A stretch of DNA of 64,000 nt from a virus (Duplodnaviria > Caudoviricetes), in IMG/VR virus record IMGVR_UViG_3300045450_000252, positions 1 to 64,000 of that record. One strand, written 5' to 3'. The notes under the pieces are model-generated. The model was not told the origin of the DNA. It ran no database searches and saw only the letters and a list, made by a program, of their open reading frames with translations. Within the stretch, counting starts at the first letter, position 1, and each line of letters begins with the position of its first letter. Below, in pieces: positions 6,677-59,573 of this stretch. The position numbers and the translations under genes are program-made.

Positions 6677-6711
6677 GTCCTGTGCAGGGCGCGCTGGCAA
6701 GCCGAGCTTTG
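6677..6711 (+). promoter_or_regulatory. Phage late-promoter-like motif, site 1
   Basis: GTCCTGT at 6677, GAGCTTTG ending 34 bp later. Confidence 0.55.
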
Positions 6712-6714
6712 TTC

Positions 6715-7281
6715 ATGTCGATTTCACCCCTGATGGATAAACCTCTACCCGTGTACCTGGTGGTGCCGGTGCGCCCCGCCGTGGAGAAGTACCTGCGTCG
6801 GCGGCTGCACCTGCGCCCCGAGGAAGCCTTCCAGCTCACTAAGAAGGGTACGGCCGGCCGCTTTCTCTACCACGTGCTGCGTAACCCACAAGAGGACAGG
6901 CAGTACACGGCCTCCGTGGCCGAGTACCCGCGCCGGTTTGCCGTCACGATTTCCAACCAATTGGCCTGGCTCAACGGCTGCCGGCACCTCACGCCCCAGG
7001 GCGTGCACGACTTCAACCGGCAGATTGAGGACCTCATCGAGCAGGAGTTTCACACCAAGCTCGACACGCTGGCTGAGATGGGCATCAAGTTCGAGACCAA
7101 GGCCCAGGCCCTGCGCTTCATGGACGGCTACGGCTTCACGGAAGACGATTTGACGCTCGACGCGCTCATTAAGTCCTACTACCGCTACCGCAAGGCCCAG
7201 CACGTGGCCAAACAGCGCGAAAACATGCTGGCTGATATTCCGAATTGTCCGGCGGCCCCGGCGCTGGACCTGGCCGCCTAA
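6715..7281 (+). CDS. Conserved phage protein, candidate late-gene regulator
   Basis: Homolog at 48179..48697 (PVRP.V.KYL, DALIK/DALKK); lies between early and structural modules; start 6715 or 6732. Confidence 0.75.
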   Translation: MSISPLMDKPLPVYLVVPVRPAVEKYLRRRLHLRPEEAFQLTKKGTAGRFLYHVLRNPQEDRQYTASVAEYPRRFAVTISNQLAWLNGCRHLTPQGVHDFNRQIEDLIEQEFHTKLDTLAEMGIKFETKAQALRFMDGYGFTEDDLTLDALIKSYYRYRKAQHVAKQRENMLADIPNCPAAPALDLAA

Positions 7282-7285
7282 GCTC

Positions 7286-7936
7286 ATGCTCGCACCATCC
7301 CCCGGCCAGCTGCGCAACCTCGACCCACTCATCCTCGACAACGTGGGTGGGGTAGAGGCACTCTGGTATGCCGACGTGGCCGACGTGCTGCACGTGCCCG
7401 ACCCCGACGCCCCGCTTATCACCGCCGACGTGGTGCTCAAGCCCGGTGCCTCGTGGTATCAGCTCGTGGCCACGCGCACCACCCTGGGCTTCACCCAGGC
7501 CGGCAAGACCGACCGGCACGGGCCGTATTTCCAGCCCAGCCTGAAGGGCGTGCTGGCCAAGGCCACGGCCACGGTGGCCGCCGGGCTGGAGGCGCTCGAC
7601 GGGCGGCGCTTTCTGCTGCTCTACCGCGACCACAACGGCACCACCTGGCTGGTGGGCGCGCCCGACGAGCCGCTCACCTTCAGCGACAAGTACGACACGG
7701 GCACGGCCACGGCCCGCAATAACTACGATTTCACCTTCAGCGGCGAGACCACGCGCCGCGCCCGGCCCTACGAGGGCAGCTGGCTGGTGAGCGGCGTGGG
7801 CCTGAGCACGGGCGTGGGCGCGACCGCCGGGCTCGTCGAAATCCGCGATGCGGCGGGTCAGCTGCTGGCCACGGCCGCGCCCGGGCGCACGGTCGTCATC
7901 CGCTCGGGATTTCAGGTGGATTTTACCATTCTTTAG
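7286..7936 (+). CDS. Tail-tube-like paralog
   Basis: Shares DN.GG, LK.G, LLY...G...L.G.P..P and FTF patterns with 13366..13968; homolog at 48754..49413. Confidence 0.6.
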   Translation: MLAPSPGQLRNLDPLILDNVGGVEALWYADVADVLHVPDPDAPLITADVVLKPGASWYQLVATRTTLGFTQAGKTDRHGPYFQPSLKGVLAKATATVAAGLEALDGRRFLLLYRDHNGTTWLVGAPDEPLTFSDKYDTGTATARNNYDFTFSGETTRRARPYEGSWLVSGVGLSTGVGATAGLVEIRDAAGQLLATAAPGRTVVIRSGFQVDFTIL

Positions 7937-7946
7937 CCTCCTTGCC

Positions 7947-8840
7947 GTGAAGCCAGAAGACTTTCAAGTTGCCAGCAATCAGCGCTTTGCTGATAACGAG
8001 CTGATGCACATCCGGCCGGCGTATTTCCGGGCCTTTGCCGCCGATATCCGGGCCACGTTCGTGTCGCAGCTCGCGCCTAACGTGCCCGAGTACGACCCCA
8101 ACTACTTGTACCCCGTCGAGTACCTGGTGACGTATCAGGGGCCGTTTTACCGGGCCAGGCAGGAGGGCTTTCTGCCCGCGCCCACGCCCGGCCAGGAGAC
8201 GGCCGAGTGGAAACCGGTACAGCCCCCGCTGCCGGCGACGCTGCCTTACCGCGAGCTGACGGTGCTCCAGGCCCAGGACTGGGCCAGCGACGGGCTGCTG
8301 GTGCCCAGTACCTTATACCGCCTGCAAGGCCGCGTCGCTGCCACTGGCGACCCGCTCGCCGACGTGCTGGTGGTGGCCGTATCGCGGCACCACCTCAGTG
8401 AGGCCGACGCCTACACCGTAAGCCTCGACGCGCAAACCCGCCAGGAGCAGGTGCTGCCGGTGAGCTACTCGCTGGCCACCGATACGACGGGAGCACGGGC
8501 GGCCGGCGGGGGCGGTACCAGCTACAGCGACGAGCAGGCCCGCGCCGCGCCGCTGGACCGCGTGGCCCCGGCCGGCACGACCACCGTGACGCTCACGGCC
8601 GAGTCGCCAGAAGATTATGGCACGGCCGCCAGCGGCACCTTCACGGTGGACGGCACCGGCTGCGTGGTCGGCAAAGAGGCTTATTTCGACATCAGCGCGG
8701 GTGGCACGGCTCCGCTTTTCACCAAGGCCCCGGCTGGCCAGCCATTCGATACGACGCTGGCCAAGTTTGTACCGGGCGTTTTCAACCGCTATGCCGTGCG
8801 GGTTTTTTCAAGCCGCATTGAAGTAATCCGCACGAAATGA
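7947..8840 (+). CDS. Virion fibre/decoration-like protein
   Basis: GTG start; YDP..LY..EYLVTYQG.FYRA...W CBM5/12-like motif; homolog at 49422..50318. Confidence 0.65.
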   Translation: MKPEDFQVASNQRFADNELMHIRPAYFRAFAADIRATFVSQLAPNVPEYDPNYLYPVEYLVTYQGPFYRARQEGFLPAPTPGQETAEWKPVQPPLPATLPYRELTVLQAQDWASDGLLVPSTLYRLQGRVAATGDPLADVLVVAVSRHHLSEADAYTVSLDAQTRQEQVLPVSYSLATDTTGARAAGGGGTSYSDEQARAAPLDRVAPAGTTTVTLTAESPEDYGTAASGTFTVDGTGCVVGKEAYFDISAGGTAPLFTKAPAGQPFDTTLAKFVPGVFNRYAVRVFSSRIEVIRTK

Positions 8841-9574
8841 GTACTTACTACGCCCGCCGCCGGGCCGCCGCTGCCCTCAGCTTCGAGCGCCCGGCCGGCG
8901 CGGCTTACCGCTTCACGCCCGCTTCGCTTCAGGCCAGCGGCGGCCTGGTGACGAGTTGGCGTGACGAAGTGAGTGGCCTCGTGCTCAACGCCACGGGCCA
9001 GATAGCCTACACCGCCGCCGACGCCCGGCTCGGGGGCCAGGCCACGGCTGAGCTGACCAGGTCGAGCCACTTCGACACGTTCCCGCTCGAAATCACTGGC
9101 TCGCTCACAGTTGCAGTAGTACTCAAGCAGCTACCCTTACCGGATGAATTCTACATTCAGAACCCGCTGGTGCTCAAAACGGCCGGGGGTGCCTATTCCG
9201 GCTTCGGAAATGGGGAGTACGGCCGGCTGCCAAACTTTAACGGGCGCGGCTACGACCTGATTAATAATCAAAACTTTGACCCTTTCGCGCCGCGGGCGCA
9301 ACTCGCCACCTTCGCACAGTACAGCGACCAAAGCACGCTGCGCCTCTTGCTCAACAACGTGGAACTGGCCCCGCTCAACGGCGGCGTGGGCTTTGTGCCC
9401 AAACAGCAGTACACCGCCTCGCTGGGCTACCTACCGGCCGATACGCGCTACGGCTACAGTGGCCTCATTAGCTACGTGGAAATCTTCCAACGTCAGCTCA
9501 GCGAGCAGGAATTGCAGGAGTATGCTGGCTGGCTGAACCAGCAATTTGACCTCACCGAAATCAACCCGTACTAA
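8837..9574 (+). CDS. LamG/concanavalin-like receptor-binding candidate
   Basis: W.DEVSG, LTVAVV and G.ISYVEIFQRQLSEQE pattern typical of LamG-like tail domains. Confidence 0.55.
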   Translation: MSTYYARRRAAAALSFERPAGAAYRFTPASLQASGGLVTSWRDEVSGLVLNATGQIAYTAADARLGGQATAELTRSSHFDTFPLEITGSLTVAVVLKQLPLPDEFYIQNPLVLKTAGGAYSGFGNGEYGRLPNFNGRGYDLINNQNFDPFAPRAQLATFAQYSDQSTLRLLLNNVELAPLNGGVGFVPKQQYTASLGYLPADTRYGYSGLISYVEIFQRQLSEQELQEYAGWLNQQFDLTEINPY

Positions 9575-9575
9575 G

Positions 9576-10194: not shown

Positions 10195-10198
10195 TGGC

Positions 10199-10760: not shown

Positions 10761-10795
10761 GTCCTTTCTACCCCCCTGGTGAGCGGGCAGTTTTG
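10761..10795 (+). promoter_or_regulatory. Late-promoter-like motif, site 2 (head operon)
   Basis: TTTTTTCT-GTCCTTT...CAGTTTTG, 34-bp spacing. Confidence 0.65.
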
Positions 10796-10814
10796 CATCA
10801 TTCAACCCTGAACG

Positions 10815-12206
10815 ATGCAACTCAACAGTGCCCTCGCGGCAGTTCTTGGCGGGCAATTCCTGCTCGAAGAGTCGGCCGTGCCGGCCTTTATGCTCCAGTC
10901 GGCCCGCCTGCTGATGGAAGGTAGCCCGGCCGCCCCCCGGCCGGCCGAGCAGTCCGCGCCGGCGGCTCATTTCGCTATCGATATGGCAGCCACGAGCCTG
11001 GAGCTGCGCGGCTACGGCTCGCTCGACGACGTGCCCGCCGGCTCAGTGGCCATCACGACCCTCAACGGCGTGATGATGCCCGACGACGCCTGGGACTATG
11101 ACTACGGCTACGTGCCCGGCACGCGCACGCTGGCCGCCCGCATCCAGCAGGCCGATGCTCACCCCAACATCGTGGCCCACGTCGTGGTGGCCCGCACGCC
11201 GGGCGGCAGCACGATGGGCCTGGAGCACTTCGGTGACGTGATTGCGGGCACCGCCAAGCCGCTCATCGGCTACGTGGAAATGATGTGCAGCGCGGGCCTG
11301 TGGGCCGTGTCCGGGGCCGATAAAATCGTGATTGCCCGCACGGGCATCGCCGGCAGCATCGGCACGAAGTGGGACGGCATGGACTTCTCGAAATTCTACG
11401 AGAAGATGGGCATTACCCCGGTCACGGTGACGGCCACCGACTCGGTGGACAAGACTCGCATGTTCGACGAGGCCCTCAAGGGCAAGCCCGGCCTGCTGCG
11501 CACGCAGCTGCTCGACCCGCTCAACAATGAATTCCTGGCCACTGTGAAGGCCAATCTGCCCGAGGCCACCGCTGACACGCTCACCGGCAAGCTCTACGTG
11601 GGCCAGGCCGCCATCGACAACGGCCTGGCTGACCAGCTGGGCTCGCTTCAGGATGCCATTCAACTGGGCATCGACCTGGCCGACGCGGCCGGGCTCGTCG
11701 GGGCCGGCTCTTTTTCTGCTTCTACCACTTTTTCCCCTTCAACCCTTTCTCACTCAACTACTACTATGGGACTGTTCGGCAGTAACAAAAACGCTACCCT
11801 GGCTTTTGCAGCCCTGGGTGCCCTCGCGGGCAAGACTGGTCTGACGGCCGACAGCGCCAAAGCCGCCAACGAGGAGCTGATTGCCGCCGGCGTGACCGAC
11901 GCGGCCATTATCACCCGTGCCGAGTTTCAAGACCTCTCGGCCAAGGCCGCTCGCGCCGATGCCGCTGAGGGCAAGGTAACCGAGCTCACGGCGCAGGTGG
12001 GCACGCTCACCACGGCCAAAACTGAACTCGAAACCAAGCTCACGGCCGCCAATCAAGAGGTGGTTCGTCTCGGTGCTCTGCCCGGCGCGGCCCCCACCGC
12101 GGCCGGCAAGGCCGCCGGTGACACCCAGGAGCCGGCTAAGGCCCATGCCTGGTTCAACCCCGAAGCCGACCACAACGCCGAGGCCATTGCCCTGCTGGGC
12201 AAGTAA
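10815..12206 (+). CDS. S49 (ClpP/SppA-like) prohead protease fused to scaffold
   Basis: RTPGGS, MCSAGLW, GSIGT motifs; C-terminal Ala-rich coiled coil. Confidence 0.88.
   Translation: MQLNSALAAVLGGQFLLEESAVPAFMLQSARLLMEGSPAAPRPAEQSAPAAHFAIDMAATSLELRGYGSLDDVPAGSVAITTLNGVMMPDDAWDYDYGYVPGTRTLAARIQQADAHPNIVAHVVVARTPGGSTMGLEHFGDVIAGTAKPLIGYVEMMCSAGLWAVSGADKIVIARTGIAGSIGTKWDGMDFSKFYEKMGITPVTVTATDSVDKTRMFDEALKGKPGLLRTQLLDPLNNEFLATVKANLPEATADTLTGKLYVGQAAIDNGLADQLGSLQDAIQLGIDLADAAGLVGAGSFSASTTFSPSTLSHSTTTMGLFGSNKNATLAFAALGALAGKTGLTADSAKAANEELIAAGVTDAAIITRAEFQDLSAKAARADAAEGKVTELTAQVGTLTTAKTELETKLTAANQEVVRLGALPGAAPTAAGKAAGDTQEPAKAHAWFNPEADHNAEAIALLGK
11766..12206 (+). CDS. Nested in-frame scaffold protein
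   Basis: Internal ATG after pyrimidine-rich tract; matches the separate P2 gene 52725..53183. Confidence 0.6.
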   Translation: MGLFGSNKNATLAFAALGALAGKTGLTADSAKAANEELIAAGVTDAAIITRAEFQDLSAKAARADAAEGKVTELTAQVGTLTTAKTELETKLTAANQEVVRLGALPGAAPTAAGKAAGDTQEPAKAHAWFNPEADHNAEAIALLGK

Positions 12207-12294
12207 GCGGCCTCAGCCCCGGCCCCCGCTCACCAGGAGAGGCGGTCGGTTAAGTCCTGTTTTCCCCTCTCTCAACTTTTTTCTGCCCCTTTTT

Positions 12295-13290
12295 ATGGCT
12301 ATCAATGCCACTCAACTAAAAGACGAACTCGGCAACTTCTCGCGAAGCAACAACAAGGAGATTCGCAGCATGGCCTACCAACAGTCGGTTACGGCCAAGT
12401 TCATGCGCCTCGTCGCTTCGGTGAAGGGCCGCTTTCCCGCTCTCCAGGCAATTTCAAGCCACGTTGTGCAGGGCTTTACGGCCGTGTGGAGCCCGATGGG
12501 TATCACCGAGTTTCGGGTAAACGAGCTCAAAAATTTCCGCCAGAAGGTCAACTACCCGATTAAGCCGGACGATATCCAGGCCTCGTGGCTTGCGGAGCTG
12601 TACAAGGAGAATACGAAGCCGGCCGACATGCCCATTTCGCAGTATATCATCAACGACCAGCTGATGAAGAAGGTCGTAGCCGACCGGGAACTGCTCTTGT
12701 GCAAGGGTAAATACGACGCTGCACGAAAAAACGAGTTTGGTAAGTCGATGGACGGTATCGCCGAAATCATCCGCCAGGCCTGCTTGCCTGGCACTGAGAA
12801 CCCGGTCTTTCAGGTGCCGCTCCAAGCCATCACGTCGAGCAACATCACGGACCAGGTGACTGACTTCGAGATGGCCATTCCTGAGCCGCTGAAGGACTTG
12901 CTCACGCGTGTATTCATGAGCAAGAGCAACCTGGAGAAATATCGCATCGATTACTTCAAGAGGTACGGTGTGTATCCCAGTTACACCGACAACAAGGGCT
13001 ATCGCACCATTTTGGGCGACCGTGAGCTGATTGGCTTACCCGGTCTGAATGGCTCGGATGTCATCTTCTCAACCCCTGACGAGAACTTCTTGCGCCTCAT
13101 CGATATCAACGATGACCCGGTAATTACCGACGTGCAGGCCCAGGATTACGACGTGAAAATCTTCATGGAGTGGTGGGAAGGTGTGCAGTTCTACACTAAC
13201 CAAATGGTAGTTGTTGGCGTGGTGGGCGGCACGGTAAGCGGCCTGGGTAGCGACGAGTTGGACGAGAAATATTACCCCAGCCTCAACTAA
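12295..13290 (+). CDS. Major capsid protein
   Basis: Follows protease/scaffold; distant homolog of 53245..54240 (SWL..L, K.MDGI..II). Confidence 0.8.
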   Translation: MAINATQLKDELGNFSRSNNKEIRSMAYQQSVTAKFMRLVASVKGRFPALQAISSHVVQGFTAVWSPMGITEFRVNELKNFRQKVNYPIKPDDIQASWLAELYKENTKPADMPISQYIINDQLMKKVVADRELLLCKGKYDAARKNEFGKSMDGIAEIIRQACLPGTENPVFQVPLQAITSSNITDQVTDFEMAIPEPLKDLLTRVFMSKSNLEKYRIDYFKRYGVYPSYTDNKGYRTILGDRELIGLPGLNGSDVIFSTPDENFLRLIDINDDPVITDVQAQDYDVKIFMEWWEGVQFYTNQMVVVGVVGGTVSGLGSDELDEKYYPSLN

Positions 13291-13365
13291 GTCAGCGGCG
13301 CTAAAAGCCCAGCAGCCCACCACGTCGAGCGGGTTATTTTTCCACTTATCATTCAGCTACTACCT

Positions 13366-13968
13366 ATGACACTAGACTTTGAAGACATTGAGGGTACCGC
13401 CGGCGAAGACAATAGCGCGGGTATTCAGCAGAACATCTACCTCATCGACCACCGCGACGTGGCCGGCCACCCCGCCTTCCCGAAAATCGACGTGAAGTCG
13501 GCCACGGCCCAGACGCTGGCCGACCTGGTGACGGTGCCGGATGACATTCTGCTTAAAAACGGCCGCAAGGCCTTCCGCCTCCAATGCACGCTGGAGAAGG
13601 GGGCGGGCACGAGCGACTCGCAAGGGGAAATCGACGGCATGAGCTTTAAAAACGGCCTCAAGCTGCTCATTCCCGGCAACAAGGCCAACGCCGACGGCTT
13701 CGCCCGCTACGCCAAAAACGGCTCGTTCTACCTGCTCTACTTCGAGCTGGACGGCTCGCCCCGCCTGCTGGGCAACCCCGGCTACCCGGCCAAGATGGTG
13801 AGCGCGCCCGGCACCACGGGCGAGAAATCGGCCGACCTGAAGGGCCGCACCTTCACTTTCCAGAGCGTGTGGAGCGGCCCGGCCCCGATTTTCGCCGGCC
13901 AGGTGATGATTGCCGGGGCCACAGCTAACGACCCGGCTACGGAGCAGGAGTTGGTGTACCTGAAGTAG
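13366..13968 (+). CDS. Major tail tube protein
   Basis: ~200 aa after capsid; homolog at 54720..55256; inferred from size, position and beta-rich pattern. Confidence 0.65.
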   Translation: MTLDFEDIEGTAGEDNSAGIQQNIYLIDHRDVAGHPAFPKIDVKSATAQTLADLVTVPDDILLKNGRKAFRLQCTLEKGAGTSDSQGEIDGMSFKNGLKLLIPGNKANADGFARYAKNGSFYLLYFELDGSPRLLGNPGYPAKMVSAPGTTGEKSADLKGRTFTFQSVWSGPAPIFAGQVMIAGATANDPATEQELVYLK

Positions 13969-14009: not shown

Positions 14010-14044
14010 AAAAAGCCCGCTGGCCTTGCCAGCGGGCTTTTTTT
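14010..14044 (+). terminator. Rho-independent terminator
   Basis: AAAAAGCCCGCTGGC-CTT-GCCAGCGGGCTTTTT. Confidence 0.85.
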
Positions 14045-14045: not shown

Positions 14046-14080
14046 GTCCTTTCGGGGCGGTAATTACCAAGGGAATTTCG
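14046..14080 (+). promoter_or_regulatory. Late-promoter-like motif, site 3 (terminase operon)
   Basis: GTCCTTT...GAATTTCG, 34-bp spacing; GGTAATTACC in spacer. Confidence 0.65.
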
Positions 14081-14084: not shown

Positions 14085-14723
14085 ATGACTCCGAAAGAAT
14101 GGCTCGACGGCGAGCGCAACTATGAGGTAGGGCGACAGCTCTACGAGCAGCTGGGCGACAATGCCCGGCTCAAGCAGGTGCTGGGCCACGGCCCCAGCGC
14201 CTACAACCAGGAGGCCCTGGCCTGGGAAATCGACAAGCTGGCCCGGGACGGGGTGGCGGTCGCCGTTGCCCTGGTCGTGCCGGTGCCGGTCGTAGTGGCC
14301 AGCGCCCCGGAAGCGACGCCGAGCGAGCCCGCGCCCGAAAACCCGCTACTGGCGGAGCTGCGCGAGGCCCGCCGCCCGCTCTACGATGAGCGCACCCACC
14401 TGCACGCGCAGCTGGAGGTGCTGGCCGAGCACGGCAGCCAGGACGACGTGCATCAGGCCGCCCTGCGCATCATGGGCCTGAGCCGCGAGCTGGAGGTCAG
14501 CAAGCAAACTGAGGCCTACGTGGCTGAGCATGGCCAGCTGCCCCCGCCGCCGGTCGCCGCGCCCGGTCTCGACGCGCTGAGCCCGGTGGACTTGCTCAAA
14601 AAGCGCAATAGCCTGCGCAGCCAGGTGAGCCGGCTCAAAAAGCGTGAAGACCGCGCCGCCGACCTGGTGCAGGCCCAAACCGATTTGAGCGTGGTGGAGG
14701 AGGCGCTGTTGGGCCATGAGTAA
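14085..14723 (+). CDS. Conserved phage protein upstream of terS
   Basis: Homolog at 55559..56176 (WL..G..Y..G..LY..LG). Confidence 0.8.
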   Translation: MTPKEWLDGERNYEVGRQLYEQLGDNARLKQVLGHGPSAYNQEALAWEIDKLARDGVAVAVALVVPVPVVVASAPEATPSEPAPENPLLAELREARRPLYDERTHLHAQLEVLAEHGSQDDVHQAALRIMGLSRELEVSKQTEAYVAEHGQLPPPPVAAPGLDALSPVDLLKKRNSLRSQVSRLKKREDRAADLVQAQTDLSVVEEALLGHE

Positions 14724-15354
14724 GAAAGCCACCAACCTGCCGGCCGTCGTGCCCACCGAGCTCAAAACGACCTTCGACCGCATCTACTACTCCTATTTGA
14801 GCGAGGAGGTGGAGGCGCTGCTCACGCCTGACGAGCTGGAGCGGCGCGTGCGCATTGATGAGGCCTGGCACCACATGGTCACGCTCAAATCGCCGCTGGC
14901 CACGGCCGAGTGGGTGCAGGGCAAGTTCGACGTGGCGCGCGCGACGGCCTACCGCATCGTGCGCGAGGCGCTGCAAATCTTCGGCGACGTGGTGGAAACC
15001 AGCAAGGCCGCCAAGCGCCGTCTGCTGTGGGAGTATTCGCTCAAAGGGCTGGACAAGGCGCTGGAAATCGAGGATATGCGCGCCTACGCCGCCATTCTCA
15101 AGAACATGACCACGTTCGAGGGCCTCAACCTCGAAGACAACACCTTCGACGGCGAAGCCATCCAGGCACACACCTACCTCATCCAAATCGACGGCCCTGG
15201 GGGCGGCCTGCGCTTCAATGCCAACGCTATCGAGGAGTTGACGCCTGACCAATACGAAGTGGTGCTCGACAGCGTGGAGGATATGACTACCAGCGTGGAG
15301 CAGATGGAGAAAATGCTCGACCGGGCCGAAAAGAAAGGAAAAAAGCAGTCGTGA
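14716..15354 (+). CDS. terS: Terminase small subunit
   Basis: HTH (F.V.RATAYR) immediately upstream of and overlapping terL. Confidence 0.7.
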   Translation: MSKKATNLPAVVPTELKTTFDRIYYSYLSEEVEALLTPDELERRVRIDEAWHHMVTLKSPLATAEWVQGKFDVARATAYRIVREALQIFGDVVETSKAAKRRLLWEYSLKGLDKALEIEDMRAYAAILKNMTTFEGLNLEDNTFDGEAIQAHTYLIQIDGPGGGLRFNANAIEELTPDQYEVVLDSVEDMTTSVEQMEKMLDRAEKKGKKQS

Positions 15355-17012
15355 GCGCCCAGAACGTAAAAACGAAACCGCTGCACTTCAACCGGCCCCA
15401 GATGCGGTTTTTGGTCACGCTGATGATGTCGGCCGTGAGCATCTGGGGCCGGGCCACGGGTAAGTCGTCGCTCATTGCCTGGCTGATGCACCTGATAGTG
15501 CAGAACCTGCCCCGCAGCGCCTGGGCGCTGTGCGGGCAGACCTATCAGCAAATCCTGACCCGCACGCTGCCCTCGACGATTGCCTCGCTCGAGCGCATCG
15601 GCTACTTCCAGGACGTGCACTACGTCATCGGGGTAAAGCCGCCCAAGCACTTTGCCCGGCCCTTCGAGCCGCCGCAGACCTGGGGGCATACCATCTGCTT
15701 TGCCAATGGCACGGCCTTTCACCTGATTTCGCTCGACGGGGGCGGAGGCAGCGCCCGCGGCCTGAACCTGGACGGGGTGCTGGCCGACGAGTCGCTCACG
15801 CTCAACCGCGAGAAGTTCGACGACGAGGTGCTGCCCGCCAACCGGGGCAATGAGCGCCAGGCCTGGAGCGGGCACCGCCTGCACCACGGCGTATTTCACT
15901 TCACGTCCATGCCCTACGGCAACCAGGGCAAGTGGCTGCTGGAGGGCAGCAAGCACTACCAGGAAAACGGGAAGGACTACGAGGCGCTCAGCCGCGAGCT
16001 CGTGCGCCTCCAGCTGCGCTACATCGACAACAAGGACCGCGAAACCCGGCGGGCCGTGTGGGAGGATATCCAGCAGCTTACGCGCCAGCTGCGCTACTAC
16101 GTCGATGGCGATGGCCAGCTCTATAGCGAGGCCAACGTGTTCGAGAACCTCACCAACGTCGGTATCCGCTACCTGGAGCAGCTGCGCCGCCTGCTCACCG
16201 ACTTCACCTTCCGGGTGGAGGTGCTCAACCAGCGCCCTCTGGCCGTGGAGGCGGGCTTTTATCCCACGCTCGACACGGCCAAGCACAGTTACGAGGCCTT
16301 CAACTACAGCCACCTGGAGGGCGAGAACTTCAGCGCGGCCCGGCTGAAGCGCCTGAGCGAGTTTCCCGATAGTCGGCAGGATGCCGATTGCGACGCCACG
16401 CTGCCCCTGCGCATCGCGGCCGACTGGGGCAAGGCCTCGTTCATTACCGTGGCCCAGGTGCACGCCAAGGTGCGGGAGTATCGCTTCCTCAAGGGCTTCT
16501 ACGTCAAGCACCCGCAGCTCATTCGCCACCTGGCCAAGCTCTTCACCGACTACTACGCCCACCACCTGATTAAGCGCGTCGTCTTTATCGAGGATGCTGA
16601 GTATGGCAACAGCCGCAACCCCAACAGCGAGGAAACCTACAACCAGGAGTTCTGCCGCCTGCTGCGCGAGGCGGGCTGGAAGGTGGAAGTGAAGAAGCTC
16701 GGCCGCGTGCCGGGCTACCGCACGCGCTACCTGCTGGCCCACGAGCTGCTGGCCGAGCTCGACTCCGCCCAGCCCCGCCTGCGCTTCAACAAGTACCACT
16801 GCAAGGAGGTGCTGCTGGCCATGCAGATGACCGAAATCCGGCAGGGCAAGAATGGTATTGAGAAGAACAAGACCAGCGAGAAACTCAAGAGCGTGCCGGC
16901 CGAGGAGGCCCCGCACTTCACCGATACCTTCGACCTACACCTGCTCAGCATCGACGACACGCTCATCAAGCCCACGGCCGACTTCAGCGGCTTCGTGATG
17001 CTCACGAGCTGA
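15351..17012 (+). CDS. terL: Terminase large subunit
   Basis: Walker A WGRATGKS, Walker B VLADES, C-terminal nuclease (AADWG...HFTDTFD). Confidence 0.9.
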   Translation: MSAQNVKTKPLHFNRPQMRFLVTLMMSAVSIWGRATGKSSLIAWLMHLIVQNLPRSAWALCGQTYQQILTRTLPSTIASLERIGYFQDVHYVIGVKPPKHFARPFEPPQTWGHTICFANGTAFHLISLDGGGGSARGLNLDGVLADESLTLNREKFDDEVLPANRGNERQAWSGHRLHHGVFHFTSMPYGNQGKWLLEGSKHYQENGKDYEALSRELVRLQLRYIDNKDRETRRAVWEDIQQLTRQLRYYVDGDGQLYSEANVFENLTNVGIRYLEQLRRLLTDFTFRVEVLNQRPLAVEAGFYPTLDTAKHSYEAFNYSHLEGENFSAARLKRLSEFPDSRQDADCDATLPLRIAADWGKASFITVAQVHAKVREYRFLKGFYVKHPQLIRHLAKLFTDYYAHHLIKRVVFIEDAEYGNSRNPNSEETYNQEFCRLLREAGWKVEVKKLGRVPGYRTRYLLAHELLAELDSAQPRLRFNKYHCKEVLLAMQMTEIRQGKNGIEKNKTSEKLKSVPAEEAPHFTDTFDLHLLSIDDTLIKPTADFSGFVMLTS

Positions 17013-17282: not shown

Positions 17283-17317
17283 GTCCTTTCGCTGGCCGGC
17301 CGCGGCGGGGAATTTCG
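17283..17317 (+). promoter_or_regulatory. Late-promoter-like motif, site 4 (portal operon)
   Basis: TTTTTTGT-GTCCTTT...GAATTTCG, 34-bp spacing. Confidence 0.65.
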
Positions 17318-17324: not shown

Positions 17325-17669
17325 ATGGACCCAAAACCTACCATTCCCCTGAAGGCCGTGCTGGCCGCGATGGCGGCCGCCGTCGAGCCCTTCGACCTGC
17401 GCTACGTCAAGCTCAACGAGCAGAAAGGTACCGGTGGCGAGGTAGTGCCGCTGACCGGGCAACTGCTCAGCGGCAAGGGCGCGGGCCAGCAGCTGGCCCC
17501 GGCCCAGCCCGCCGCCCCGGCCGAGGAGTCGGCTCCGGCCGCCGGCCGTCGCGACCCCCACCACCACGCCAACATGACGCGCAACCTGAAGAGCACCCTC
17601 AACGGCCGCTACACCAAGGTGCACATCTATCTCATCACCGAATTCAACGGTAAAAAGGTCATTATCTGA
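17325..17669 (+). CDS. Conserved phage protein upstream of portal
   Basis: Homolog at 59582..59968 (H..N.TRNL, K.HIYL.T). Confidence 0.8.
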   Translation: MDPKPTIPLKAVLAAMAAAVEPFDLRYVKLNEQKGTGGEVVPLTGQLLSGKGAGQQLAPAQPAAPAEESAPAAGRRDPHHHANMTRNLKSTLNGRYTKVHIYLITEFNGKKVII

Positions 17670-21665: not shown

Positions 21666-21695
21666 AGCCCGCCGGCCCTGCCGGCGGGCTTTTTT
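21666..21695 (+). terminator. Terminator after lysis cassette
   Basis: AGCCCGCCGGC-CCT-GCCGGCGGGCT-TTTTT. Confidence 0.85.
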
Positions 21696-21697: not shown

Positions 21698-21732
21698 GTC
21701 CTTTCAGACCGGTAATTACCAGGGGAATTTCG
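21698..21732 (+). promoter_or_regulatory. Late-promoter-like motif, site 5 (tail operon)
   Basis: GTCCTTT...GAATTTCG, 34-bp spacing; GGTAATTACC in spacer. Confidence 0.65.
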
Positions 21733-41415: not shown

Positions 41416-41423
41416 TATGTTTG
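41416..41423 (+). promoter_or_regulatory. -7 element of the rightward early promoter
   Basis: TATGTTTG matches TAnnTTTG in the repressor/Cro intergenic region. Confidence 0.6.
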
Positions 41424-48116: not shown

Positions 48117-48151
48117 GTCCTTGAGGGCAGGGGAGGGGGACGGTAATTTTC
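48117..48151 (+). promoter_or_regulatory. Late-promoter-like motif, site 6 (variant)
   Basis: GTCCTTG...TAATTTTC at the same spacing; syntenic with 6677. Confidence 0.5.
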
Positions 48152-48178: not shown

Positions 48179-48697
48179 ATGCTCCACACCTTTACCATTC
48201 CCGTCAAGCCCCACGTGCGCAAGTACCTGCTGCACCACCTGCGTGCGGGCTACAAGCTCACGCAGCTCGACGCCTTCGGCCGGCACCTGCGCCTGCTGCT
48301 GGAGCGCAAGCGCAAGAACAATTTTCTCAACGGCTTCACCGAGCGATACACGGCCAGCTTCGGGGTGTCGGTAGAGGGTAACCTCATCTTGCAGAAGCGC
48401 TTGCGGGCGCTCAACTCGAAGGAGATTATCGACTTCAACAACTTCGTGGAGGACGTTATCAAGACCGAGTTCTACGGCCTGGTCGACAACCGCCTCAGCT
48501 TCGGGCTGAGCCAGTACGGGGCCATTCAGCAGTTTCGGGCCAAGTACGATTTCCAGGACGAGGACATTACCCACGACGCTCTCAAGAAGGCCTGGCAGCG
48601 CTACGATGCTGAGCGCCGGCTCGCGGCCGCGCCCCAGAATTGTGTTTCAGTTTGTCCCCTACCCGTGGCCGTGGCCCAGCACCGGCTCGTGGCCTAG
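48179..48697 (+). CDS. Conserved phage protein, candidate late-gene regulator
   Basis: Homolog at 6715..7281. Confidence 0.75.
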   Translation: MLHTFTIPVKPHVRKYLLHHLRAGYKLTQLDAFGRHLRLLLERKRKNNFLNGFTERYTASFGVSVEGNLILQKRLRALNSKEIIDFNNFVEDVIKTEFYGLVDNRLSFGLSQYGAIQQFRAKYDFQDEDITHDALKKAWQRYDAERRLAAAPQNCVSVCPLPVAVAQHRLVA

Positions 48698-48753: not shown

Positions 48754-49413
48754 ATGCTTTCCCCCTACGAGCTGCGCAACGTGGTGCAGGTGCCCGCCGA
48801 TAACCTGGGCGGCATTGAGGCGCTCTGGTACGCCCGCGTGAGCGACCTGCTTGACTTCGACGACTTGGGTGAGCTGCCCATTGGCCAGCTCACCCTCAAG
48901 CCGGGTGCCTGTTGGTATCAGCTCGTGAGCACCCGGGGCACGGTGCGCTACAAGCAGACTCCGAAACCCCTGGGCCGGCACGGCGAGAGCTACGGCCAGA
49001 AGCTCACGGGCACCGTGCCCCGGCACACGGCCGAGCTGGTGGCCGGCCTCGAGGCGCTCGAGGGCCAGGAGCTGGTCGTGCTCTACCGCGACCACAACGG
49101 GCAGGTGCAGCTCGTAGGCACGCCCGAGCAGCCGCTGGCCTGGTCTGACACCTACGACTCGGGCGAGGTAATGCAGGGCCAGCGCAACAACTACGACTGG
49201 ACGCTGGAGGGCGAAACACCCCGCCGCGCCCGGCCTTACCTGGGCACCTGGCTCGTGAGCGGCGTGGGCCTGGCCGGCGGCGTGAGCCTGGGCAGTGGGG
49301 CCGGGGGCGAAGTCTACCTGCGCGACCGCGCCGGCAACCTGCTGGCCACCGTGCCCGCCGGCAAAACCATCATTGTGCGCTCGGGCTTCCGGGTCGCTTT
49401 CTCCATTATATAG
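48754..49413 (+). CDS. Tail-tube-like paralog
   Basis: Homolog at 7286..7936. Confidence 0.6.
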   Translation: MLSPYELRNVVQVPADNLGGIEALWYARVSDLLDFDDLGELPIGQLTLKPGACWYQLVSTRGTVRYKQTPKPLGRHGESYGQKLTGTVPRHTAELVAGLEALEGQELVVLYRDHNGQVQLVGTPEQPLAWSDTYDSGEVMQGQRNNYDWTLEGETPRRARPYLGTWLVSGVGLAGGVSLGSGAGGEVYLRDRAGNLLATVPAGKTIIVRSGFRVAFSII

Positions 49414-51047: not shown

Positions 51048-52049
51048 ATGCTCGTACGTGCCCCGCGCAAAAACCTGCGCCTACTGCTGCCAGATGTGGT
51101 TATCGGCCGCACCACCTTCAAACAAGTGGCCTACGTCACCCGGCAAGGCTTCACGCAGCCCCGCTCGACTGGCGAGGTTTCTGCCGCCATCGTGGCCGAG
51201 GTCGTGCGCTACGCCGTGGACGAGAGCCAGCCGGACGGGCTGGGCGTGGAGCTGGCCGAGTTCAACCCCCGCGACCCGGTGCGCCTGATTGGCACCAACG
51301 ACACGCTCCTGTATGCCGACACGGGCGAGGTATCCCTACAGCGCACCACCGAGGCGCTGCCCGACTGGCTGGCTGCTTGCCAGGCGAAGGCAATGGAGGA
51401 GGAGCCCCGGTCGGTGATTTGGCAAAGCGATGCGTTCGAGCTGCTGCTGGAGCAAGAGGTAGTCGTCGCGCAGATTCGCCACCACTTAGCTGCTGCGCTA
51501 GCCTATCATTTCGCGCCCAATGATGCCGCCGATCAACTCATGTTGTGCAATGCACCACCTACTTCACTACTTAGCGAACAACTGGGGCCGCTGCCTGCTG
51601 GTAGCTCTGACTGCCGCTGTTGTCGCTGCCGGCACGTTACTACTACCTGTCTCTTTTCAACCCTAACCTCGCGCCCCGGCCCACTCGGCCGGGGCTTTTT
51701 ATTGTCCTTTTTGCGGGCGCGGACCGCTGGCAGCTTTGCATCATTCAATCCTGCAAGATGCTCGGTCTCGTTTCCCGCTTATCCTCTTCGCCCTGGGCGC
51801 TTTCGCTGGCCCACGCGCACTCCTCGCTGCCGCTACTGGCCAGCCTACTCATGGGCACGGCCTCGGTGCAGGAGGCTGACTTTGCCGCGGCCCGCGCCGC
51901 CGCTGCTCCCGTCGACTACCAGGTTACGCTGGCCACGCGCTCGGGCTTCGTGGCCTACGGTGCCCGCCAACAGGCCGGCCCGGGCGGCACCGGCGGGGGT
52001 ACCACCGACGGCATCCTGGTGCGCGTCATGTCGGTGGAGGGGCCGCTGA
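51048..52049 (+). CDS. Homolog of 9576..10112 lacking its stop; tail past ~51590 probably spurious
   Basis: GAA-TGA in P1 is GAA-CAA here, so the frame runs through a terminator into the protease gene. Confidence 0.55.
   Translation: MLVRAPRKNLRLLLPDVVIGRTTFKQVAYVTRQGFTQPRSTGEVSAAIVAEVVRYAVDESQPDGLGVELAEFNPRDPVRLIGTNDTLLYADTGEVSLQRTTEALPDWLAACQAKAMEEEPRSVIWQSDAFELLLEQEVVVAQIRHHLAAALAYHFAPNDAADQLMLCNAPPTSLLSEQLGPLPAGSSDCRCCRCRHVTTTCLFSTLTSRPGPLGRGFLLSFLRARTAGSFASFNPARCSVSFPAYPLRPGRFRWPTRTPRCRYWPAYSWARPRCRRLTLPRPAPPLLPSTTRLRWPRARASWPTVPANRPARAAPAGVPPTASWCASCRWRGR
51550..51666 (+). CDS. 38-aa single-TM peptide
   Basis: MHHLLHYLANNWGRCLLVALTAAVVAAGTLLLPVSFQP*, ends just before terminator. Confidence 0.45.
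   Translation: MHHLLHYLANNWGRCLLVALTAAVVAAGTLLLPVSFQP
51673..51700 (+). terminator. Rho-independent terminator
   Basis: GCCCCGGCC-CACTC-GGCCGGGGC-TTTTT. Confidence 0.85.
51704..51738 (+). promoter_or_regulatory. Late-promoter-like motif, site 7
   Basis: GTCCTTT...CAGCTTTG, 34-bp spacing; ATG 20 nt later as at site 2. Confidence 0.65.
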
Positions 52050-55485: not shown

Positions 55486-55517
55486 GCCCCGCTGCCAGCG
55501 TGCAGTGGGGCTTTTTT
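55486..55517 (+). terminator. Rho-independent terminator
   Basis: GCCCCGCTGC-CAGCGT-GCAGTGGGGC-TTTTTT. Confidence 0.75.
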
Positions 55518-55519: not shown

Positions 55520-55554
55520 GTCCTTTCGGCCCGGGGGGCTCGCCAGCAACTTCG
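55520..55554 (+). promoter_or_regulatory. Late-promoter-like motif, site 8
   Basis: GTCCTTT...CAACTTCG, 34-bp spacing. Confidence 0.65.
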
Positions 55555-56176: not shown

Positions 56177-56844
56177 GTACCTCCTTGCCTTCTGTAACTG
56201 ATTTGCCCGGTGCCGACCAAGTGCCTCTGCCCAGCTCCACGGCCATTGAGCGCATCTACGCGGCCTACATCGAGAACACGCTCTCGCAGCTCAACGCGGC
56301 CGATAAGACCACCCATGCCGAGCTGGAGGCGGCCTACGCTTTGATTCTCAACTACCACACCTTTGAGCAGGCCTGGCCCCTGCTGGCCCGGCAGTTTGAG
56401 CTGAGCCGGGCTTCTTGCTACCGCCGCCTGGCTGACTCGCAAAACCTGTTTGGCGACCTCAAAAAAGTCAAGAAGGAGGGACGCCGGACGGTGCTGGCGG
56501 ATTTCGCCCGCAAGTTGCTCCAACTCTGCCTGGGCCAGCGCCCACCCGACGTGAAGGGCGCGCTGGCGGCCATGAAATTTGAGGCCAACCTTACGGGCCT
56601 GCTGCGGGCCGATGCCCACGGCGAGGAGGGCACCGGCGGGGTAGGAGCGACCACTTACATCATCAATTTGCAGGTGCAGGGCCGCAAGGCCCGGCCCATC
56701 GACATTCACAAGCTCGACGACATTTCCGATGCCGATTATGAGCTGGTGCAGGAGGCCGTGGCCAGCCAGGTGTTCGGGGCCACTGCGATGGAAGTCATGC
56801 TCGCTGACCGCCGGGCCTTGGAGGAAGGGGGGGCGGCGTCGTGA
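56173..56844 (+). CDS. terS: Terminase small subunit
   Basis: FELSRASCYRRL HTH; overlaps terL start. Confidence 0.7.
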   Translation: MSTSLPSVTDLPGADQVPLPSSTAIERIYAAYIENTLSQLNAADKTTHAELEAAYALILNYHTFEQAWPLLARQFELSRASCYRRLADSQNLFGDLKKVKKEGRRTVLADFARKLLQLCLGQRPPDVKGALAAMKFEANLTGLLRADAHGEEGTGGVGATTYIINLQVQGRKARPIDIHKLDDISDADYELVQEAVASQVFGATAMEVMLADRRALEEGGAAS

Positions 56845-58541
56845 GCCTCATCGACCGGGTACAACTCGACTTCAACCAGGCCCAGCTGCGCTACGTCACG
56901 GCCCGGGGCACCAAGGAGGGCATCAGCATCTGGGGCCGGGGCACGGGCAAGTCCAGCATCATTGCCTGGGACATGCACAAAATCGTGACCACCATGCCCC
57001 GCTCGTGCTGGGTGATTGTGGGCTCGACCTACAAGCAGGTGCTCACCCGCACGTTGCCCTCCACGGTGGCCAGCCTCGAGCGCCTGGGCTACAAGCTGGG
57101 CCGCGATTTCTACATCGGCCGCAAGCCGCCGCCCTCCCAAAACTGGGAGCATCCCTTTCAGGGGCCGCTGAGCTACGACCACTTCATCATTTTTCGCAAT
57201 GGCACGGGCTTTCACCTGGTGAGCCTGGATGCCGGGGGCTCGGCCTCGCGGGGCCTGAACGTGGATGGCTTTATCGGTGACGAGGCCCTGCTCTTCGATA
57301 AAAATAAGCTCGACGCCGACCTCTCGGCCACCAACCGGGGCAACGGCCAGTACTTCGGCAAAAACCCCATGCACCACGGCGTTTTTCTTTTCAGCTCGAT
57401 GCCCTGGGGCGACCAGGGCCGCTGGCTGCTGGATAAGGCCAAATACTATGAGAATGAGGGTATAGACCTCGTGGAGCAGCGCCGCGAGCTGCTCGATGCC
57501 CAGGTGCGCTTTCTGGACGCCAACAGCGAGGGCGACGAGGCCATGCTGGCCATCTGGCGCGACGAGGTGGTGCCCTTGCTTCAGAAGGTGCAGTTTTTCC
57601 CGTCCAAGGCGCAGCGCGGCACTTTCTACTCGGAGGCCAACGCCTTTGACAACATCCGGAACCTGGGCTTGCAGTACTTGCTTGACCAGCGCCGGTTTAT
57701 GACCGATTTTACGTTTCAGATTGAGATGATGAACCGCCGGCCTACGACGGTCAAAAACGGCTTTTACCCCCGGCTCAACCAGGCCGTGCACGTGCAGGAG
57801 TGCGCCGCCGACGACACGCTGCTGGGCCTGGTCGACGAGCAGGGCCTGGGCCACCACCTCAAGCTGCTCAAGGGCCTGGTGGACAAGCCCGACTCGCGCC
57901 TCGATAGCGATTGCCGCTCGCACCAGCCCCTGCGCATCTCGGTGGACTTTGGGGCGCGCATCACTACCTGCTGGGTGGGCCAGCCCCACCGCGACGTGGG
58001 CGAGTATCGCCACCTGGGTGGCTTCCACGTCAAGTTTCCCGCCTTCATCGACGAGTTGGTGGGTAATATCTGCGAGTACTACCGCTACCACCTGCGCCGC
58101 GAGGTGGAGTTTCTCTCCGACGAGGAGTACGGTGACGCCCGCCGGCCCGACAGTGAGTTTACGCTCAACGAGCGCTTCATGCGGGCCTTCCTCAAGCGGG
58201 GCTGGCGCATTCAGCGCTTCGGGCTGGGCCGCATCCCAGGCCACCCCACGCGCTACATGCTAGCCCATGACCTGCTCGCCGAGGACGACCCCAAGCTGCT
58301 GCGCCAGCGCTTCAACAAGGAGCGCTGCAAGGACGGCATCACGGCCATGCTGCTGGCCCCGGTTAGTCAGGACAGCAAGGGCCGCATCAAAAAGGTGAAA
58401 ACCAGCGAGCAGAAGGAGAGCTTCCCCGCCGAGCACGCCACCCACTACACCGACAACATCGACCTGCATTTCCTCTCCTGCGGCACCGATATCGTCAACG
58501 CCTCGGTGGACTTCAGTCAGTTGGGGGTGTTTAGCACGTAA
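56841..58541 (+). CDS. terL: Terminase large subunit
   Basis: WGRGTGKS, FIGDEA, SVDFG...HYTDNID. Confidence 0.9.
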   Translation: MSLIDRVQLDFNQAQLRYVTARGTKEGISIWGRGTGKSSIIAWDMHKIVTTMPRSCWVIVGSTYKQVLTRTLPSTVASLERLGYKLGRDFYIGRKPPPSQNWEHPFQGPLSYDHFIIFRNGTGFHLVSLDAGGSASRGLNVDGFIGDEALLFDKNKLDADLSATNRGNGQYFGKNPMHHGVFLFSSMPWGDQGRWLLDKAKYYENEGIDLVEQRRELLDAQVRFLDANSEGDEAMLAIWRDEVVPLLQKVQFFPSKAQRGTFYSEANAFDNIRNLGLQYLLDQRRFMTDFTFQIEMMNRRPTTVKNGFYPRLNQAVHVQECAADDTLLGLVDEQGLGHHLKLLKGLVDKPDSRLDSDCRSHQPLRISVDFGARITTCWVGQPHRDVGEYRHLGGFHVKFPAFIDELVGNICEYYRYHLRREVEFLSDEEYGDARRPDSEFTLNERFMRAFLKRGWRIQRFGLGRIPGHPTRYMLAHDLLAEDDPKLLRQRFNKERCKDGITAMLLAPVSQDSKGRIKKVKTSEQKESFPAEHATHYTDNIDLHFLSCGTDIVNASVDFSQLGVFST

Positions 58542-58571
58542 CGCAAAGCAGACGGGCGATAGCCTGAGTTG

Positions 58572-58634
58572 TACGAAGCCACCAAAAAGGGGGCGTTAGC
58601 CAGTAGCTAACGCCCCCTTTTTGGTGGCTTCGTA
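58572..58634. terminator. Perfect 29-bp inverted repeat (bidirectional terminator)
   Basis: TACGAAGCCACCAAAAAGGGGGCGTTAGC-CAGTA-exact complement. Confidence 0.8.
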
Positions 58635-58674
58635 TAGCGCGAATTAGGAGCTTGTGATAAGCCCGCGGCTACGA

Positions 58675-58986
58675 TTAATAGTCGTCCAGACCACGGACAT
58701 ACGCACGCCAGTAGAACGGGTCATAGCCAACTTCCCGGGCGTGCCGAACTGCAATGGCCCGCTCGGCCTCCAGCGCTTCTTCGTACTCGGGGGTTCCCTT
58801 GCCGTACTGCTGGTCTAGTTGAGCCGCAAACGCCGTTCCATCTGCATAGCCCGACGCAGTTAGCGCAACCTGCGACGTGAGGGCTACCTGCGTAGGTACA
58901 CTGCCCCGCGCAGTGGCTGGGGTTGCACAGCAGTAACTGCCTGCCAGCAATAGCGCTAGCGAGAAAGCAACATTAGCTTTTTTCAT
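58675..58986 (-). CDS. Secreted accessory protein (moron)
   Basis: MKKANVAFSLALLLAG signal peptide; antisense; AT-rich upstream region. Confidence 0.65.
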   Translation of the reverse strand: MKKANVAFSLALLLAGSYCCATPATARGSVPTQVALTSQVALTASGYADGTAFAAQLDQQYGKGTPEYEEALEAERAIAVRHAREVGYDPFYWRAYVRGLDDY

Positions 58987-59354
58987 GAGGAAAGGGAAAA
59001 GGAATGGAGAGAATACGCCCTTGCTGTAGGTAAAGGCGCAGTAGCAAAGGAAGGGGTCCTCGCAACTGTGCAAAAGGACATAATAGGAAAATTCAGGACA
59101 TCGAGCCTGGTGCTTACTTAAGGGTTTTATGCTGCTTATTCCGACTTACTTCTTATTTTAATTATATTTCAAGGGTTGTTCGATTTGTGTTGTTGCTAGT
59201 AGCCAGGATGTTATCACAAGGGGTTAGGATAGGTTAGGCCAGTGCGTAAAATAAACTTTGCCTCGAAGTATAGCGCACGAAATACAGCTAGTTAGTTCTG
59301 GATTAGGGCAAGTGAGCCACTTATCAGGTAGCGCTACTCAGCAACGGCCCCAGG

Positions 59355-59510
59355 CAGATATCCCCCGAGGCAGCCCCCGGCAACTGCCAGTGCCCGACAG
59401 TGCAAGCCGGGGAATCCTGCTCGACCCGTGAGACTGTGAAACGCCAAAACGGCCCAAAATCGCTGTTTCCAGCGCGCCAGGGTACTTCGCGTTGAGATTG
59501 GACTTTTACC
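59355..59510. other. Conserved non-coding block homologous to 17085..17270
   Basis: Shared motifs in the same order upstream of the portal operon. Confidence 0.5.
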
Positions 59511-59538
59511 CTTTTGCGGGCCGCTGAGGGGTTTTTGT

Positions 59539-59573
59539 GTCCTTTTGGCTGGCAGTGGTCGGCGGGTACTTCG
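59539..59573 (+). promoter_or_regulatory. Late-promoter-like motif, site 9
   Basis: GTCCTTT...GTACTTCG, 34-bp spacing. Confidence 0.65.

Follow-up and report, generated by a model that had tools for sequence, protein, structure and literature searches.

We found that a stretch of 64,000 nt (hereafter the window; the first 64 kb of one 77.5-kb IMG/VR virus record, 63% G+C) carries nine copies of a two-box element, in which a GTCCTTT box and a degenerate Bacteroidota −7 box lie a fixed distance apart ahead of the virion-gene blocks of two related Hymenobacter prophages. These sites are probably late promoters requiring either a phage activator or appropriation of the host sigma factor, and the best candidate for the phage product involved is gpX, the protein encoded directly downstream of the first site in each prophage.

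All nine sites of the original prediction were found where it had placed them (Table 1), and in each of them exactly 34 bp separate the first G of the upstream box from the last base of the 3′ box (35 nt spanned). The description of the site at 59539 as a variant applied to its 3′ box (GGTACTTCG) but not to its upstream box, which is an exact GTCCTTT. A scan of the whole contig with a loose pattern revealed a tenth site at contig position 65162, beyond the window, as predicted by symmetry. Specifically, the sites fall into five classes (A to E), ordered along each prophage and forming the syntenic pairs 6677/48117, 10761/51704, 14046/55520, 17283/59539, and 21698/65162; because they pair by synteny, they count as five independent positions seen twice rather than as nine (or ten) independent events. 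All seven GTCCTTT heptamers on the plus strand of the window belong to sites, compared with none of the three on the minus strand. The loose pattern gave nine plus-strand matches and one minus-strand match in the window, against 0.3 ± 0.56 (maximum 3) in 200 first-order Markov simulations. The class A variant of site 6677 was also found at the syntenic place in two relatives (G004 and G005), and that of site 48117 recurs in G002. As had been proposed, the sites head structural operons or the gene preceding them, i.e., the gpX block and the protease/capsid, terminase, portal, and tail blocks.

The anatomy of the element was derived from a profile of 61 Hymenobacter-phage sites, in which the first G is position 0 and the bases T−8, T−7, and G−5 (promoter numbering, see below) are fixed by the search pattern. 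These bases are not search artefacts, as judged by the heptamer test in the window and by a looser scan of 28 low-GC sites, in which the A and the G of the 3′ box persist when not imposed by the pattern. The layout consists of GTCCTTTY (preceded, where present, by a terminator hairpin and a T-run), an unconserved 19-bp spacer, sArYTTYG, and then CA. Information is concentrated in the two boxes: the T-run occupies positions −7 to −3, followed by T at −1, GTCCTTT at 0 to 6, and T or C at 7 (59/61, with G only in some class A sites), while downstream there are GG at 25 to 26, C or G at 27, A at 28 (53/61), A or G at 29, C or T at 30, TT at 31 to 32, C or T at 33, G at 34, and GGCA at 36 to 39 (A at 39 in 46/61). 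The spacer positions 9 to 24 hold no information, and no conserved pairing was seen among the 61 sites.

Bacteroidota housekeeping promoters, which are read by sigma-ABfr, have a −33 TTTG and a −7 TAnnTTTG (or TAHHTTTG) element (PMC6847099); in Flavobacterium johnsoniae, the −7 box has its G at −5, with T−12, A−11, T−8, T−7, T−6, and G−5 nearly invariant (PMC6847099). Given this position of the G, the conserved A at profile position 39 is the predicted +1. With the same numbering, A28 corresponds to A−11, T32 to T−7, TTTY (positions 4 to 7) to −35 to −32, GTCC to −39 to −36, and the T-run to −46 to −42. The phage sites resemble host promoters in their 19-bp spacing, in A−11, T−8, T−7, and G−5, in the TTT at −33, and in a predicted start 5 nt past the G. 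Unlike host promoters, they carry an invariant GTCC, and the late sites have T or C for the G of TTTG. The originally noted deviation of the 3′ box from TAnnTTTG proved systematic in the late classes, which lack T−12 (present in 2/61 and replaced by C or G in 59/61) and often T−6 (present in 26/61, with C in 35/61). The further suggestion that GTCCTTT takes the place of the −33 TTTG was right only in part, as TTT(C/T) itself occupies the −33 position at a canonical 19-bp spacing, whereas GTCC is an upstream extension absent from host promoters.

These features distinguish two classes of site. The site before gpX (class A) is near-canonical in relatives (TTTG-N19-TAnnTTTG; it reads GTCCTTTG...TAGGTTTG), which makes it an almost perfect sigma-ABfr example, and in one prophage it is a perfect host promoter (GTACTTTG-N19-TAAGTTTG), while the later sites (B to E) have defective boxes. 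We propose that the two related prophages are temperate Hymenobacter siphoviruses and that the sites would serve as their middle and late promoters. Each would be a modified sigma-ABfr promoter whose 3′ box keeps the A−11, T−8, T−7, and G−5 needed by every sigma-70-family sigma factor, with transcription predicted to start at the A of the conserved CA, five bases past the last G.

We then asked of host DNA whether the motif is equally common there, and it is not: both a weight matrix and four host genomes place it in phage DNA only. The weight matrix, built from the sites and applied at a threshold of at least 18 bits, gave 61 forward and 0 reverse matches in 532 kb of related Hymenobacter phage records and 0 matches in 400 kb of the Hymenobacter humi chromosome, scanned on both strands (800 kb). 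A strict pattern (T-run, box, GGSAATTTCG) matched 10 viral and 10 genome stretches, the latter being Hymenobacter genomes plus three contigs of metagenome-assembled genomes (MAGs) labelled Janthinobacterium or Bdellovibrio (mis-binned). The loose pattern matched four to six times in each of six related viral records, always on one strand, with 0 matches on the other strand and in a reversed control. In four Hymenobacter genomes (5–6 Mb), its overall frequency was not above the control, and clusters of five same-strand sites, 3–6 kb apart, were found inside prophages. Canonical host promoters (TTG-N19/20-TAnnTTTG) occur without GTCC in the 400 kb of the H. humi chromosome, and the canonical-looking promoters within the window likewise lack it. 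A host regulon sharing the motif was ruled out by the prophage-confined clusters and by the zero host matches of the weight matrix.

The same observations bear on whether any phage factor is needed. The sites could in principle be strong factor-independent sigma-A promoters that are enhanced intrinsically by GTCC and the T-run (as an extended −33 or UP-like element), with timing set otherwise. The T-run falls at −46 to −42, the location of the proximal UP subsite in Escherichia coli; moreover, the boxes resemble the host consensus, and gpX has no demonstrable DNA-binding fold. We nevertheless consider this explanation quite unlikely: host promoters in the 400-kb sample are without GTCC, within the four host genomes the motif occurs only in prophages, and the avoidance of the consensus T−12 in 59/61 late-class sites looks like selected weakness. 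Such promoters, if constitutive, would also drive the terminase, portal, tail, and lysis blocks in the prophage.

Two Hymenobacter genomes (G007 and G008) each contain numerous copies, in both orientations, of a different host repeat, GTCCTT(T)CGCTGCGCTCAGGATGAC. This repeat, which resembles a dispersed REP-like element, has no relation to the phage motif.

Beyond Hymenobacter, we found the same design at the same gene junctions in phages with only 25–33% protein identity and 30–63% GC, which belong to a large Bacteroidota phage lineage that has received little study. A prophage of a 36%-GC genome (G353), whose proteins are 27–33% identical to those studied here, has six same-strand GTCCTATT-N19-nAnnTTYG sites, located before gpX, the protease, and the terminase and portal blocks, as well as at two other positions. 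Scanning viral contigs for the GTCCTATT variant returned 81 stretches, 15 of which encode a gpX homologue on the same strand (within the retrieved piece), and 8 of 10 viral records with multiple sites encode gpX, among them all 3 with a completeness of at least 90%. Among 401 sampled Bacteroidota genomes, 6 encode gpX. The 97 distinct low-GC sites yielded the same consensus, with the ATG at +5 in 36 of them. The cultured Polaribacter phage Leef_1 (Helgolandviridae, 30% GC) encodes gpX as Leef1_39, and its portal, neck/tail, protease, and terminase blocks are preceded by sites that combine a terminator, a T-run, and GTCCTTTTTT. As Leef_1 carries both the motif and gpX, the hypothesis is directly testable in culture.

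The box variants seen comprise GTCCTTTY, GTCCTATT, ACACGCT-GTCCTTTTT, and ACGTGTCACA. In MZ447863.1 (Microcystis phage Mea-Yong924-1, labelled a cyanophage), AACACGCT-GTCCTTTTT-N-nAnnTTTG is found at 13089, 17598, 19633, and 28690, and a gpX homologue at 8977–9450; a member of the Bacteroidota present in the Microcystis culture may be its actual host. In a gpX-bearing prophage of a 48%-GC genome (G053), ACGTGTCACA replaces the GTCC box before the portal and small-terminase-like blocks (~27090 and ~35290, joined coordinates), possibly as a box variant covarying with gpX.

Terminators had been reported to merge with the promoter T-run at 14046, 21698, 51704, and 55520, and strong hairpins do abut the T-run at all four sites, with a fifth such fusion at 65162. 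At these five sites, a G+C-rich hairpin is followed immediately by a T-run, as in Rho-independent terminators, and the hairpin energies range from −21.9 to −27.2 kcal/mol, where the background of the window is −11.2 ± 5.0. Only weak hairpins, no stronger than this background, precede 10761, 17283, and 59539, and sites 6677 and 48117 have neither a hairpin nor a T-run. Wherever present, the T-run stops exactly 2 nt before GTCC. At the five fused sites, the terminator that ends one block and the promoter that follows it would form an insulated stop-restart module.

The distance between the two boxes is fixed, in contrast to the distance to the ATG, which varies from 4 to 38 nt. Specifically, counted from the last G, the ATG lies at +5 in 24 sites of classes C, D, and E in Hymenobacter phages (including those with start codons at 14085, 55559, and contig 65201), at +8 or +9 in most class D sites, and at about +20 in class B sites. 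An ATG at the predicted +1 implies leaderless mRNAs, which are predicted for both terminase blocks and for the prophage-2 tail block (65162) and would set these sites apart from sigma-ABfr promoters; in F. johnsoniae, 87% of mRNAs have leaders of >10 nt (PMC6847099).

That the element follows terminator hairpins and often has a start codon fixed 5 nt downstream might be taken to mean that it acts on RNA (processing, translation, or antitermination) in polycistronic read-through transcripts rather than as a promoter. This is extremely improbable given that the box-to-box distance is the constant one, that neither sequence nor pairing is conserved in the spacer, that the class A sites have no hairpin, and that the 3′ box fits the DNA-level −7 consensus.

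A leader (CATCATTCAAYCCTGAA; 20-nt form CATCATTCAAYCCTGAAMG) separates the class B site from the ATG of the protease gene (10796–10814 and 51739–51757). Hymenobacter phages share it even though their promoter spacers are not conserved, and it could function in translation or as an element of the initially transcribed region.

A gpX homologue is the first gene past the class A site in 13/13 related elements (11 relatives and the two prophages here), and the two gpX proteins of the contig are homologous (29% identity). Profile searches returned 112 gpX proteins in a 90% clustered set, all hypothetical and bearing only the names of Hymenobacter or mis-binned MAGs, and 1,415 clusters at 50% identity (E ≤ 0.001). 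No function was assigned to gpX by Pfam or PHROG, with 10 distant members also negative in Pfam; the PDB held no sequence match, and Foldseek against the PDB gave nothing at E ≤ 0.001. Likewise, tblastn of gpX and one distant member against 50,697 phage records gave no match, and a related-locus search started from a single protein found one close relative and none among genome contigs; the Leef_1 gpX was reached via fold search and profile only. An AlphaFold2 model of the prophage-2 protein (48179–48697) has a predicted local distance difference test (pLDDT) score of 82 and a predicted template modelling score of 0.75, and its sole clear structural relative is the uncharacterised Leef_1 protein (template modelling score 0.70–0.76). 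The three C-terminal helices of the model align weakly to helix-turn-helix domains (including small-terminase, LuxR-type, and sigma region 4) with VIA-align Z ≤ 5.7, a suggestive match only, and the N-terminal domain folded alone has a pLDDT of 62.5, too uncertain for a fold search.

It is unlikely that gpX, or another phage protein, is instead a highly diverged alternative sigma factor reading both boxes (cf. T4 gp55 and the phiEco32 sigma). The size of gpX is within the range of extracytoplasmic function sigma factors (145–260 aa), its C-terminal helices weakly match region 4 of sigma-28 and SigK (Z 4.2–4.5), and the late sites depart systematically from the host consensus at −12, −6, and −32, which speaks for such a factor. 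However, neither gpX nor the 10 distant members gave a Sigma70_r2 or Sigma70_r4 match, no region-2-like fold was found for gpX, and the class A sites grade into perfect host promoters. The 3′ box retains the host A−11, T−8, T−7, and G−5 and the canonical 19-bp spacing, which favours the host sigma-A holoenzyme with a helper at GTCC over a new sigma factor.

Other candidates were also rejected. A sigma-54 reading of the TGGCAC past the class D sites failed, as no TTGC is suitably spaced from it and these bases belong to the leader and start of a gene; a phage RNA polymerase has no candidate gene; and the LuxR-type regulator of Leef_1, considered as the conserved factor, has no homologue in the window.

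In the mechanism that we favour, the host RNA polymerase would be recruited by a phage product that binds the GTCC box or makes use of it, either as a class II activator or by T4-style sigma appropriation, and gpX, encoded downstream of the more canonical first site, would be that product. If every virion block is served by a separate promoter located past a terminator, control of read-through cannot act as the principal switch; own promoters, together with the silence required in the lysogen, make a switch at initiation via a positive phage factor the most likely arrangement. gpX is the best candidate because of its position at the early/late junction, its co-occurrence with the motif, its own more canonical promoter, and its possible helix-turn-helix part. 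Cross-activation between the two prophages would be plausible in view of their common box; bearing on it are the identity of only 29% between the two gpX proteins and the slight difference between the 3′ boxes of the prophages (GGGAATTTCG versus GGCAAYTTCG). As a more tentative possibility, gpX may found a new family of phage transcription factors (~1,400 clusters at 50% identity, no Pfam, no solved relative) that reads or exploits GTCC. Such a family would set late transcription in Helgolandviridae-like phages of Bacteroidota from soil, leaf, marine, gut, and oral habitats, and it might act by remodelling region 4 of sigma-ABfr.

Several points weigh against the favoured mechanism. We infer promoter activity, the position of the start site, factor dependence, the role of gpX as the factor, and the timing of expression from sequence. 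The GTCC box hardly varies, in contrast to gpX, whose identity falls to ~25%, and neither sequence nor fold searches gave a significant match of gpX to any DNA-binding or sigma family; VIA-align Z values of ≤5.7 fall within the range of common helical arrangements. The co-occurrence of gpX and the motif is confounded by shared ancestry because all carriers belong to one broad phage lineage with shared structural genes. The T-run may be merely the tail of the terminator. In Hymenobacter phages, gpX's own promoter bears GTCC, so that basal activity or autoactivation would be needed. Several low-GC phages, in comparison, have a canonical gpX promoter without GTCC, which is what a regulatory cascade would predict.

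The silence required in the lysogen could also be thought to come from GTCC itself, as a repressor operator shutting otherwise active late promoters. The box overlaps the −33 region, and a separate palindrome (GGTAATTACC or GGCAATTGCC) in some spacers makes protein binding inside the promoters plausible. Even so, we regard such an operator as highly improbable: GTCC is asymmetric and is kept across phages of hosts with 30%–63% GC and in two co-resident prophages, whereas immunity operators normally diversify fast, and the CI-like repressor gene (40872–41345) adjoins a canonical early promoter without GTCC.

The 10-bp palindrome GGTAATTACC is found in the window at 13119, 14059, 17021, 17108, and 21711, and it occupies positions 13–22 in the class C and E promoter spacers of prophage 1. 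Its place is taken by GGCAATTGCC in two close relatives, G004 and G005, a change that is symmetric in both half-sites, and these two also have GGCAATTGCC in an extra site near the genome end. In most other Hymenobacter phages examined, a further palindrome copy lies ~160–175 bp upstream of the class D site, just past the terminase gene. The spacer palindrome could be the operator of a dimeric regulator or a packaging site.

Phage-specific late promoter regulons are, as a kind, well known from T4, Mu, and P2. Like the T4 middle promoters (MotA box, MotA/AsiA), the sites described here keep a host-type downstream element and have a phage-specific upstream box at a fixed position, and the logic would likewise be that of a phage product redirecting the host RNA polymerase. 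The sequence and position of the box differ, the phages here are temperate Bacteroidota siphoviruses, and Pfam scans of 50 window proteins gave no match to the MotA or AsiA families; the analogy is functional only. With Mu (Plys, PI, PP, and Pmom, activated by C) and P2 (Ogr), the present system would share four or five late operons with the same activator-dependent type of promoter and a poor upstream element, as well as an activator gene (here, the candidate) at the early/late junction. Mu C and Mor bind dyad-symmetric sites, and P2 Ogr is a zinc-finger protein acting from about −55, whereas the box here is asymmetric and lies at −39 to −32, abutting −33. gpX has no similarity to C, Mor, or Ogr, and no scanned window protein matched the Mu C/Mor or Ogr families. 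RinA, ArpU, and Ltr of temperate phages of Gram-positive bacteria are small phage proteins, encoded just before the packaging and structural genes, that activate late transcription (PMC3152322), a likeness to the proposed role of gpX. In contrast to those systems, which usually have a single late promoter upstream of terS (PMC3152322), there are five or six predicted promoters here, each terminator-insulated, and no sequence relationship was detected.

We found no description of the motif in the literature, and the Leef_1 paper makes no mention of promoters or terminators. New here are the high-GC Hymenobacter branch, two co-resident prophages sharing one code, the distinction between class A and the late classes, the systematic loss of T−12, the predicted leaderless starts, and, in one sub-lineage, the spacer palindrome. 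The timing of gene expression in Bacteroidota phages is almost entirely uncharted. A strictly spaced signal that marks virion-gene blocks from leaf-surface Hymenobacter to marine Polaribacter can be used for late-operon annotation and prophage recognition, and it points to one concrete candidate regulator family. The sites may also be a source of insulated, inducible promoter-terminator parts for work on Bacteroidota, whose promoters are unusual and for which genetic tools are scarce. Remodelling of sigma-ABfr region 4 by gpX, if true, would be the first sigma appropriation outside T4-like phages of Proteobacteria.

Table 1. Putative promoter sites, terminator hairpins, and genes of the two prophages (window positions unless marked as contig positions)
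Feature	Position	Strand	Remarks
Class A site, prophage 1	6677..6711	+	GTCCTGTG-N19-GAGCTTTG; before gpX; no terminator, no T-run
Class B site, prophage 1	10761..10795	+	late promoter-like; before head-maturation protease; ATG 20 nt past last G
Class C site, prophage 1	14046..14080	+	before terminase block; ATG 14085 at +5 from last G; spacer with palindrome GGTAATTACC
Class D site, prophage 1	17283..17317	+	before 114-aa gene and portal; ATG at +8
Class E site, prophage 1	21698..21732	+	before tail block (from 21754); spacer with GGTAATTACC
Class A site, prophage 2	48117..48151	+	GTCCTTGA-N19-TAATTTTC; before gpX
Class B site, prophage 2	51704..51738	+	before protease, ATG 51758
Class C site, prophage 2	55520..55554	+	before terminase block; ATG 55559 at +5
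Class D site, prophage 2	59539..59573	+	before small gene and portal; ATG at +9
Tenth site, prophage 2	contig 65162		reads GTCCTTTTCTACCGAGGCAGGCTCCGGCAATTTCG, then gggcATG; counterpart of 21698
Intrinsic terminator hairpin	14010..14042	+	15 pairs, bidirectional, −27.2 kcal/mol; T-run ends 2 nt before GTCC
Intrinsic terminator hairpin	21666..21690	+	11 pairs, 10 G-C, −25.0 kcal/mol; abuts T-run
Terminator hairpin	51673..51695	+	−22.5 kcal/mol; before site 51704
Terminator hairpin	55486..55511	+	−22.8 kcal/mol over folded stretch; before site 55520
Terminator hairpin	contig 65131-65153		before site 65162
gpX, prophage 1	6715..7281	+	188 aa; alternative start at second ATG (6733); uncharacterised
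gpX, prophage 2	48179..48697	+	172 aa
Replication initiator-like	4191-5663		Pfam/PHROG
Head block	10815..13968	+	S49 protease, putative major capsid protein, 200-aa protein
S49 head-maturation protease	10815-12206	+	Pfam S49, phrog_53
Putative major capsid protein	12325-13275	+	gene after protease; 39% identity to Leef1_42
Terminase block, prophage 1	14085..17012	+	
Terminase large subunit	15351-17012 and 56841-58541		tblastn to annotated phages; ~30% identity to Polaribacter phage Leef_1
Portal	17669-19000 and 59972-61339		31-33% identity to Leef_1 portal (17669-19000, 31%)
Tape measure	27100-30456		Pfam
Resolvase	31453-32031		Pfam
Bacteroidota-type integrase	34195-35610	−	Pfam
CI-like repressor	40872-41345	−	Pfam
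Toprim primase	46477-47757		Pfam

The terminase assignment comes from the paralogue at 56841–58541, which matches annotated terminase large subunits, and from 15444–16952, which is 32% identical to Leef1_48. The gene after gpX (7286–7936 and 48754–49413) encodes the best-conserved protein of its block (~50% identity across Hymenobacter phages) and is a distant paralogue of the 200-aa gene after the capsid gene (13366–13968). It probably encodes a virion protein, in which case the class A transcript would already carry structural genes. In prophage 2, a canonical host-type promoter, TTGA-N19-TATGTTTG, lies at 41416 (region 41381–41423) and is followed by tggcATG; it has no GTCC, points away from the CI-like repressor gene, and likely marks the early promoter and immunity region of this prophage.

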